From Candidatus Marinacidobacterales bacterium (GTDB lineage: Bacteria; Acidobacteriota; Vicinamibacteria; Marinacidobacterales; SMYC01): a DNA stretch of 64,000 nucleotides. Under the pieces are notes generated by a model. It was not told where the DNA came from and did no database searches. It worked only from the letters and a program-made list of their open reading frames with translations. Location of the stretch: NCBI GenBank assembly GCA_965224085.1, contig CBDCYI010000011.1, positions 1,216,001 to 1,280,000 of the forward strand. Direction: 5' to 3'. A program made the position numbers and the translations under genes. This document shows positions 17,011 to 19,591 of the stretch, one piece after another (the stretch's first letter is position 1; each line of letters begins with the position of its first letter).

Positions 17011-18479
17011 ACGGCTGCGACTCCGTCCGGATAATGGGATGGGGATAGGCGGGTTCGCTCGGCTCTCACCGGTTGATCAGTAGTCGAACATCTCTCCGTC
17101 CAACCTCGGTGTATGGACTGGCAGTCGACGCGCCGGCATGAGTTGCTCGAACGCGTATCCAAGGGCCAGCAACCGAGCTTCACTGAACGCCGGCCCAATA
17201 AAGCTGATAGCAACGGGCAACGCCGGATCGGAAGTAAATCCCGCAGGGACGATGAGGTCAGGCCAACCCGCGGCATTCGCAAGATGCGCGGCGCTCCCCC
17301 GACCAGATCCGGAGGATCGCGACGGACGCTCGGCCTCCTCGATGAGAGAAGATGGTCGCGTGCGGGTCGGTACGATAAAGGCGTACAGCTCCATGTCATG
17401 CAGGTACCACTGCAGACTGTCTCGCACGATCTTCCGGCCTTCGTTTAACGCCCGAGCGTACGGCACATCCTCGGTCGTTCCTGCTTCCAGCTCTCGCTGG
17501 TAAGACTCCAAACGATTGGGATTCGGCACCCAGCCCTCTGGCGTTTCTTCGGTTATCTTTTCCGTCAATTCAATGACATCGGCATGGGATTTTGGGAGAC
17601 CATTCGGAAGATTCTCGAGGTAGGCGGTAATCTGCTCTGGAAATTCCGGGTTGCGTATGCCGCGATACAACCCTCCGGCCAAGCCCGATAAGAAACGGGG
17701 AAACTCGACGTCCACAATCTCCGCGCCGTGATTACTCATTACCCGCGATAGCCGTCTCGATCACGGCATCGACACCGGGATCGCTTCCCATATAGTCTCG
17801 CAAAACACCCAGACGGGCCCCTTTCAAAGCACCCGGATCGAGCGCATCGGTGTACGTGTCGAGAACGTGATCGACAAGCACTTCGGTGGCCGAATCGCGC
17901 GGGTCCCTTCCCGCCATGACCTCGAGCACAACGGCAAGGTCGGCGACATTGCGCGCCATGGGTCCAACCGTATCGAGGGAGAGTGAGAGGGGGATAATGC
18001 TGCCACGACCGGTGAGGCCGAATGTCGGCTTGAGGCCGGCAATCCCATTGGCTGCGGAAGGCCCACGAATCGATCCGCCCGTGTCCGTGCCCACTCCGAA
18101 TACGGCAAATCCCGCCGCAATGCCGGCACCCGTTCCGCCGCTGGACCCGCTTGGCGAGCGTTCGGGATCATGCGGATTGCGAATTTGACCGCCCAGTGTG
18201 CTGATCGCCGCACCGCTGGCAAACTCGCTCATGTTGGCCTTACCGATGATGATACAACCCGCTTCCCGCAAACGCCGCGCCTGCTCCGCGTCTTGTTCGG
18301 GTTGGTAGTCGCGCAGTGCGTAGAATCCCGCCGTGGTGGGAAGATCTTTCGTTTCTACATTGTCCTTCAAGAGTACCGGAATACCATGTAGCAGTCCTCG
18401 GGGGCCATGCTCCAAGCGTTCCTTGTCGAGGAGTCGCGCTTCGGCCAAGGCTTCCGGATTCAGGGTGATGATTGCGTTC

Positions 18480-18925
18480 GGGGCTTATATACATGACTAG
18501 ACAAGCCCCTATTTGGATTCACGAATCAGAAAAAAGCCCTCATAGATGAGCAAGGAGACCGCAAACGGCACCATAACCAGCCACAAGGTCCCGCTCTCCA
18601 GTCCACTGCCCGCCATCTTCGCCAAGTAATTGTAGGCGTATAAATGAACCAGCGCCCCCACCAGGACCGTCACCACGAGCCGAGGCCATTCGGTTTCGCC
18701 CCGCATCGAACCGAGGATTTTCTCGATGAAAACGAGTACGAGGGCGACGACTGCGAAAGGGTCGATCCAATCGAATATGGGCTTGGCCGCAGCGGGATTG
18801 ACGGCGTAGAAGAAGTTGTTGAGCGTCAAAACGAAAGCTACGGCGAGCATGAAGCATCCTTTTAGTGACCGCATATTTCATCTTCTCCTATTCTTCTGTC
18901 GTGTCTAGTCATGGATATAAGCCCC
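18480..18925. mobile_element. Non-autonomous mobile insertion cassette (24-bp TIRs, 8-bp TSD, one passenger gene)
   Basis: TIRs ggggcttatatacatgactagaca (18480-18503) and tgtctagtcatggatataagcccc (18902-18925), 23/24 matching; TTGCGTTC duplicated at 18472-18479 and 18926-18933. Confidence 0.93.
18509..18874 (-). CDS. Hypothetical small membrane protein (about 4 TM), cassette passenger
   Basis: 121 aa with four hydrophobic stretches; RBS aggag 10 nt upstream; fills almost all the space between the TIRs. Confidence 0.8.
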   Translation of the reverse strand: MRSLKGCFMLAVAFVLTLNNFFYAVNPAAAKPIFDWIDPFAVVALVLVFIEKILGSMRGETEWPRLVVTVLVGALVHLYAYNYLAKMAGSGLESGTLWLVMVPFAVSLLIYEGFFLIRESK

Positions 18926-19591
18926 TTGCGTTCAGTGCCGGTCCTTCTTCTTCGTAGGCTTCGATTCGAGCAAGAACGAGCTCCGTGAGCCGCTCGCTGG
19001 TAAGCGAACCTGCGGTCATGGCCTCCTGAATCTCGAAGATGGTGGCAGAGGTGAGATCGAATTCGGCGGCCTTGGCCGGGCTCGCTATCGACGGGACAAA
19101 GGCTGCTAGCACCATCCCGGCGGACGCATTGAATCTGAGCGCTCTACAAATTGTCATCAAGTCGACCTGTACCTGTTTCAAATGGAGACCGGGGAGCAAT
19201 TCCTGTCATTTTTTCCGAAGCGTAACACAGCGCAGCGGAGCAGCACACGAGAGGGAGATCGCCCTCGGGCTGGCTAAGCTAACCTGGACGCTGCCAATCA
19301 GACCGAGGTCTCGCATGGTGGATTTCTGTCGCTCGGGCTGGTTGGTCAGGAGAACTTCCCGAGTTGACGAGCCCGAACGACGGAATCCTCTGGGTTCAAA
19401 GCGAGTGTTGGCGCAGCGCCTCACATCCACGCCGTCGTTTCCAGGGACCGAATCGGGTTTCGCCGGCGTCCGCTGCACAGCGTCTCCCAAGGCAGCCGCC
19501 AGTATGAGAGAACTGCTGATTGGCGAAGCGAGCACTAAGCCGTGGTGCTGTCGCCGCGAGACAGCTGGCGGAAGCGGGCCACGCGTGCACT

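Follow-up and report, generated by a model that had tools for sequence, protein, structure and literature searches.

We describe a small mobile element in a 64,000-nucleotide stretch of the genome of a Candidatus Marinacidobacterales bacterium (contig CBDCYI010000011.1, positions 1,216,001 to 1,280,000; hereafter the window, in whose numbering coordinates without a contig label are given). The element lies at 18480-18925, is 446 bp long and holds a single gene for a small membrane protein. We read it as a non-autonomous element of the mobile insertion cassette (MIC) type, moved in trans by a transposase of the IS1595 family of insertion sequences (IS) and carrying a cargo gene that is under selection, and we put the probability of this reading at about 85%. 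Its 24-nt terminal inverted repeats, complementary at 23 of 24 positions, lie at 18480-18503 (GGGGCTTATATACATGACTAGACA, on the stop-codon side of the passenger gene) and at 18902-18925 (on the start side), and a perfect 8-bp target-site duplication, TTGCGTTC, flanks them at 18472-18479 and 18926-18933. Allowing up to three mismatches, we find exactly two matches to the end pattern in the window and none in each of 100 shuffled sequences. Between the ends, the 121-aa open reading frame (ORF; 18509-18874, minus strand) is the only long frame that fits the element, and its 366 nt make up 82% of the length. A Shine-Dalgarno box, AGGAGAAG, can be read off the sequence at 18882-18889 (minus strand); its AGGAG part (18885-18889) is placed 10 nt 5' of the start codon and is separated from the right inverted repeat by 12 nt, and the stop codon is 5 nt from the left one. 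The whole layout is two 24-nt ends, a 27-nt leader with the ribosome-binding site, the 366-nt gene and 5 nt. The left end can fold with seven inner bases (18504-18510) into a hairpin in the mRNA strand (-15.2 kcal/mol, z score -3.0, equalled by 3 of 200 shuffles), which sits 3' of the passenger stop codon and uses the tip of the element; the proteobacterial copies described below lose one of its pairs. Pfam and NCBIfam show no transposase domain in the element ORF, and the 121-aa membrane protein is its sole credible product. An earlier note made from the letters of the window had already described this anatomy, including the splitting of an amidase gene, the ribosome-binding site near one repeat and the stop codon near the other on the strand of the host gene, and the foldable left end; our coordinates and measurements agree with it throughout.

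The ends recur as 20 pairs in five genomes: five in the source genome (G000, 6.87 Mb in 12 contigs), two in G021, one in G043, 11 in G041 and one in G042. Two of the source-genome copies (C5:2294317 and C9:10954) are counted as one insertion because both lie in a duplicated segment of ~13 kb with 99.7% identity, and there are 19 independent full-length insertions, spread over Acidobacteriota and one metagenome-assembled genome (MAG) each of Gammaproteobacteria and Alphaproteobacteria. The duplicated segment itself is found at C5:2283773-2296371 and C9:1-13008, with a 540-bp indel and one cassette in each copy. A perfect private 8-bp duplication flanks 17 of the 19 insertions. The other two (L029 and L030, on contig C16 of G041 at 184283-184728 and 201972-202417) are inverted, ~17 kb apart, and carry each other's flanks, an exchange that indicates inversion of the intervening segment by recombination between the copies. 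The source genome has four independent sites, each with its own perfect 8-bp duplication; a truncated copy at C9:75667-76045 and a solo end at C4:56353 come on top of its five full copies. Among the other carriers, G021 is of the same order and another family and has two identical copies, G010/G043 is of another genus and has one, and an orthologous copy in which one end is missing is common to G002 and G003. The 11 pairs in the gammaproteobacterial MAG (G041) are all 446 bp long, differ by 0-1 bases and all have open ORFs; the alphaproteobacterial MAG (G042) has one full copy and one that is truncated by another IS. The targets are mostly A+T-rich (TTTGAAAT, TTAAATTA, TTTTTTTT, TACTTTTT) despite the ~60% G+C content of the genomes. 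Between genomes of different families and phyla the cassette is 93-99% identical. When the source copy is compared with the gammaproteobacterial one, 1 of 48 positions differs in the ends, 5 of 27 in the leader (where GGAG is kept) and 24 of 366 in the gene, and this distribution argues that ends and protein are both constrained.

The further elements with these ends that the earlier note had envisaged do exist, therefore, and their cargo is uniform: all 20 end pairs are 445-446 bp apart and enclose the same gene. Different cargo is confined to pairs of related ends whose outer ~13 nt agree with those of the cassette, so that the interchangeable cargo suggested in the note is not borne out for the cassette's own ends. 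Outside the carriers the element appears to be rare. Its ends (up to two mismatches) occur in none of 400 other genomes of the phylum, taken as an even sample, and the exact end pattern has no match in JGI metagenome contigs, where a protein-based scan returned only one Bryobacterales-type and one chromosomal-type locus; the plasmid and phage collections hold no match to the cassette. Solo ends in G000 (C4:56353) and in G042 (C1:4456277; L065-L069) were considered as ends of a parent element and rejected, being truncated copies, 49-bp remnants or element ends cut by an IS. The first of these (C4:56353-56376, positions 1501-1524 of locus L012) is a cassette-type end with two mismatches and an unrelated interior that adjoins an IS3-family (rve) transposase gene, and it is perhaps what remains of an element that carried something else. 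At another locus (L085, G041 C4:390921-392314) two copies in the same orientation lie 503 bp apart, and the second, judged by eye, splits an IS3-family orfA-like ORF.

The insertion in the window disrupts a gene. Both flanks are pieces of one minus-strand amidase gene (Pfam Amidase, PF01425). The N-terminal fragment (18926-19199, minus strand) has a likely start, MTICRAL, near 19157, and its frame enters the inverted repeat and stops at 18909. The middle fragment (17732-18479, minus strand) matches Pfam Amidase positions 30-262 with an E value of 7e-74 and is 94% identical to its counterpart in the congener G003, and the C-terminal fragment (17077-17739, minus strand) lies in a different frame. 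Removal of the element and one copy of the duplication by script rejoins the amidase frame (...EEEGPALNAIITLNPEALAEARLL...), which reproduces what the earlier note had reported. In G003 the orthologous amidase is intact, as one open frame of ~560 codons whose start reads MTIFRALRF..., and the two window flanks, 94% and 90% identical to it, abut at the 8-bp target. The unoccupied site in this congener reads ...gatgatGGCATTCagt..., with a GGCATTC-like target. Contigs from the DNA runs X2 and X4, which may not be independent of the assembly, span both element junctions with 0 mismatches; an empty amidase allele is not seen in them, and since such contigs drop rare variants this does not show its absence. 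A further feature of the amidase, absent from the earlier note, lies within 17735-17745: one extra C in a run of C, near 17741, shifts the frame relative to the intact orthologue, and the C-terminal fragment follows in the other frame. It could be a second real lesion of the amidase or an assembly error.

The passenger ORF behaves as a gene. A word-index search gives 71 homologues with 48-97% identity, mostly 111-127 aa long, and in a 27-row alignment (A1) residues N19, N20, D38, E112 and G113 are invariant and the YAYNYLAKMAGSGLESGTLW block is nearly so. The ratio of non-synonymous to synonymous substitution rates (dN/dS), obtained from Nei-Gojobori counts with our own script, is 0.09 between the source and gammaproteobacterial copies (18 synonymous and 6 non-synonymous changes), 0.19 between the source and alphaproteobacterial copies (11 and 7) and 0.09-0.23 over the comparisons made. 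The ORF is open in 17 of the 20 copies with both ends. Immobilised relics are present in Bryobacterales MAGs (L033-L036, also L079) at one shared site, where one end has decayed and the other has decayed or been deleted; in the four of these relics that were compared the ORF is open, with dN/dS among them of 0.15-0.22. Other homologues stand in a chromosomal setting. Nine loci (L037-L045, also L080; Nitrospinota and unclassified MAGs) hold a homologue with no inverted repeats, in one conserved neighbourhood with a methyltransferase-like gene upstream and two SDR genes downstream. Seven of the nine have an open full-length ORF with 52-60% identity to the cassette protein. The homologues in L044 and L045 (unclassified MAGs, in the chromosomal context) are frameshifted, with 71-81% identity in their best segments, and L046 has 71% identity over a partial match. 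On these substitution patterns the passenger is a real gene under purifying selection, and neither of the two outcomes for the passenger that the earlier note had named as fatal to its proposal, a transposase remnant or a non-coding frame, is what we find. The synteny of the repeat-free loci suggests that the passenger was captured from a chromosomal gene, the direction being taken from synteny alone.

The passenger is predicted to form four long helices. AlphaFold2, run with the 27-row alignment, gives helices at residues 2-25, 27-57, 63-87 and 95-120, with a predicted local distance difference test (pLDDT) score of 87 and a predicted template-modelling (pTM) score of 0.79. The earlier note had proposed roughly four transmembrane segments, and we take the passenger to be an integral membrane protein of small size in which helices 1 and 4 contain polar residues. 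Pfam gives nothing over its curated cut-offs, the weak matches being DUF3995 (16.5 against 34.3 bits) and Proton_antipo_N (16.2 against 24.5), and the NCBIfam matches are far under the cut-off. An exhaustive profile search of 1.84 billion protein representatives returned only 25 clusters at E <= 0.001. Two long repeat proteins among them are spurious matches, and the few remote clusters of full length likewise belong to no Pfam family.

The ends point to IS1595. PF12762 transposases are present in all five cassette-bearing genomes, and wherever we found a transposase-bearing element with a GGG(G/A)(A/C)TTATA tip, its transposase was of the PF12762/NF033547 type and its target duplication 8 bp long. 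The elements in question are L052 (1423 bp), L070 (3337 bp), L074 (2649 bp) and L076; the duplications are those of L052, L070 and L074, and L074 carries an extra 261-aa ORF without a family beside its transposase. The cassette tip GGGGCTTATATAC and the L074 tip GGGGATTATATAC are identical at 12 of 13 positions and the whole ends at 17 of 24, which is similarity at the level of a family and not identity; the L052 end matches at 16 of 24. A single position of a 157-bp host repeat has received the L052 IS, the cassette copy in G043 and the source copy at C5/C9:10954, all three with TTTGAAAT as their duplication, and the source copy at C9:506138 is one base off this hot spot (duplication TTTTGAAA). 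The repeat is dispersed in the source genome (e.g. C9:506010-506610), is ~157 bp long and has at least 71 uninterrupted copies; its TTTGAAAT site is the hot spot shared by the cassette and an IS1595-family IS. On these likenesses the ends are best placed in IS1595, and their consensus may be that of the ISNwi1-like / IS1016-like subgroup.

Other repeats were seen around these elements. In G021, four ORF-less elements of 613-616 bp (L071-L073 and L075) have IS1595-type ends and 8-bp duplications, and one of them is invaded by an IS256-family IS (PF00872). The source genome is rich in an ISNCY-family IS (NF033593, 454-aa transposase) of ~1.69 kb, with ~80 near-identical copies that are often tandem or nested (e.g. 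C9:570630-572320). It was considered as the helper and rejected: the cassette-like ends around C9:570407-572388 belong to an unrelated element of ~290 bp that hosts a nested copy. This single element (L013) has 28-nt ends, GGGACTTATAACGATTGATTGACAAATG, and a duplication, AATAATCG, is split by the ISNCY element, and its ends are like those of the cassette at 17 of 24 positions. The IS1595 members L049, L053 and L059 of G041 were likewise set aside as a source of the ends, their own ends being unrelated.

The model that we favour would run as follows. A co-resident IS1595-family DDE transposase would bind the ends and move the cassette in trans with an 8-bp staggered cut, and the cargo would have been taken from a chromosomal gene. 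The four-helix inner-membrane protein, with polar N19, N20, D38 and E112 and the YAYNYLAKMAGSGLESGTLW stretch, would give the host some benefit, and this benefit would keep the ORF intact. The passenger would be transcribed by read-through from any upstream neighbour, in the window the promoter of the amidase, and translation would begin at the element's own ribosome-binding site. Three other explanations were weighed. The first is that the element is an ordinary non-coding miniature inverted-repeat transposable element (MITE) with a 121-codon frame open by chance in G+C-rich DNA; a second open frame on the same strand (113-115 codons) and the frameshift in three of the five source-genome copies speak for it. 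However, the excess of synonymous over non-synonymous changes between phyla (18 against 6), the full-length homologues that have no inverted repeats and retain the conserved motifs at identities as low as 53%, the relics that keep the ORF open and the confident AlphaFold2 model make this explanation highly improbable, and the substitution pattern effectively refutes it. The source and mover might instead belong to another IS family with GG ends and 8-bp duplications, such as IS256, ISL3 or ISKra4-like elements, since no IS1595 element found has identical 24-nt ends and IS256-family transposases (PF00872) occur in G021. Yet among transposase-bearing elements the combination of a GGGRMTTATA tip and an 8-bp duplication was found on PF12762/NF033547 ones only, one of them (L052) sits at precisely the site, and in the duplication, that cassette copies use, and the IS256-family genes seen are insertions nested in such elements (L075 and L076), so we consider another family unlikely. 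Of the two families named in the earlier note, IS1595 is the likelier on tips, duplications and hot spot, and the IS256-related option is the less likely.

A further possibility is that the passenger serves the element itself, for instance by making its loss costly through addiction or membrane stress, with selection acting at the level of the element. The gene does accompany the ends from one phylum to another and comes with no host pathway context. Several points speak against this: the relics of four Bryobacterales genomes, whose ends have decayed or been deleted, retain dN/dS of 0.15-0.22, the chromosomal homologues that have no ends keep their synteny, frameshifted copies still transposed, and a length of 446 bp leaves no room for an antitoxin-like partner ORF; we therefore hold a self-serving passenger to be improbable. 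The observation made in the earlier note is thus confirmed and its interpretation upheld in part: the transposase-free cassette with a real gene that it proposed remains the reading that fits best, given the private duplications at 17 of 19 insertions, the lack of a transposase ORF and the dN/dS of 0.09-0.23.

Several results nevertheless weigh against a helper-driven cassette with selected cargo. No transposase-bearing element with the 24-nt ends of the cassette (up to three mismatches) was found in the five carrier genomes, nor was a same-ended one found in the 400 other genomes of the phylum or in the JGI contigs, and the transposase-bearing version for which the earlier note had suggested a search thus did not turn up; even the closest ends agree with those of the cassette at no more than 16-18 of 24 positions and differ at inner positions 14-24. 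The helper transposase is therefore putative. In the source genome a 1-bp deletion that breaks the ORF, outside any homopolymer, is shared by the C4 copy, the C5/C9:10954 copies and the truncated copy, that is, by three of the five full copies and two of the four independent sites. Because these copies occupy different sites, they moved after the ORF was lost, which argues that the protein is not required for mobility; in this genome it is perhaps also dispensable for fitness, with selection relaxed. The protein itself gives little guidance on function. PADLOC, PHROGs (best E 0.029) and the PDB sequences contain no specific match to it, Foldseek returns no match to the model at E <= 0.001, the best VIA-align Z of 10.5, to voltage-sensor-like and other four-helix bundles, is below the level that is meaningful for helical bundles, and the ESM Atlas offers unnamed clusters only. 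The HMM and structure searches advocated in the note accordingly yield no family or fold. The backbone of the protein tree is unresolved, and the tree gives neither the ancestral form nor the direction of capture.

That the RNA evidence comes as assembled contigs weighs on the same side. A sigma-70-like promoter is not predicted on either strand in 18300-19300, and the N-terminal amidase frame ends inside the inverted repeat, 35 nt 5' of the passenger ATG; expression from an upstream host promoter, as proposed in the earlier note, is no more than compatible with the data. A 418-nt RNA-library contig of run X15, with a word depth of 174, extends over 18508-18925, and another (X18, labelled as sponge metagenome) covers 18587-18951, reaching 26 nt past the element end where the rule for a bridge is 31 nt. 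These are assembled contigs of a multi-copy element that show neither strand nor transcript ends and may derive from DNA carry-over, and they are a weak hint of transcription.

The distribution also invites a wider and distinctly more tentative picture, in which this 446-bp protein-coding MITE would be a gene shuttle across phyla within one marine host-associated community. In that scenario, the gene would have been captured from a Nitrospinota-like chromosome between IS1595-type ends, spread at 93-99% identity to Acidobacteriota, Gammaproteobacteria and Alphaproteobacteria, multiplied in one genome until 11 identical copies were present and, once its ends were lost, been domesticated on more than one occasion, because the protein is advantageous in the habitat. 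We regard this as possible and rather doubtful as a whole. The cassette reading is of interest apart from it. The element is a near-minimal natural vehicle for a gene, which it equips with no more than a ribosome-binding site and a pair of ends, and it joins in one case recent copy bursts, transfer between phyla and selection on the cargo in both mobile and immobilised form. Its copies drive rearrangement, as in the G041 inversion, and gene inactivation, as in the amidase. It also offers a tractable system for the recognition of diverged ends by IS1595-family transposases and for the role of a widespread, unstudied four-helix membrane protein. Elements of MITE size are usually assumed to be non-coding; annotation pipelines either pass over them or label any ORF in them as hypothetical.

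We compared the cassette with the known classes of small mobile elements. MITEs are non-coding by definition. The cassette resembles them in its small size, inverted ends, target duplication, many copies and nesting in repeats, and its frameshifted copies behave as plain MITEs; it differs in carrying a selected gene. With the IS of the IS1595 family, which includes members with passenger genes, it has in common the 8-bp duplication, a GGG(G/A)(A/C)TTATA-like tip, the A+T-rich target and one exact hot spot (that of L052), whereas it lacks a transposase gene, and positions 14-24 of its ends are unlike those of any transposase-bearing element seen. Among MICs, MIC231 of Bacillus cereus is an example, with the ends of IS231 (IS4). 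A description of the present element was not found in the literature on MICs, the IS1595 family, sponge symbionts and Marinacidobacterales, supplements, which possibly list such repeats, not being covered. Cassettes without a transposase that have IS-like ends and passenger genes form an established category (PMC3129680), to which qnrS2 / qnrD and Xanthomonas MICs belong (PMC5444012, PMC3913671, PMC2600179). They likewise have IS-like inverted repeats, no transposase, one or few passengers, a target duplication and presumed mobilisation in trans. The present element shows all of the structural features of a MIC except a demonstrated cognate IS, none with identical ends having been found. It departs from the described cases in that its ends are IS1595-like and not those of IS231 (IS4) or others, it is only 446 bp long and 82% coding, and its cargo is a membrane-protein gene without a family instead of a resistance or enzyme gene; its spread extends over Acidobacteriota and MAGs of Gammaproteobacteria and Alphaproteobacteria. 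What is new here is this combination of IS1595-type ends, a length of 446 bp, one unstudied membrane-protein gene, a distribution over several phyla, a burst of 11 copies and domesticated relics.

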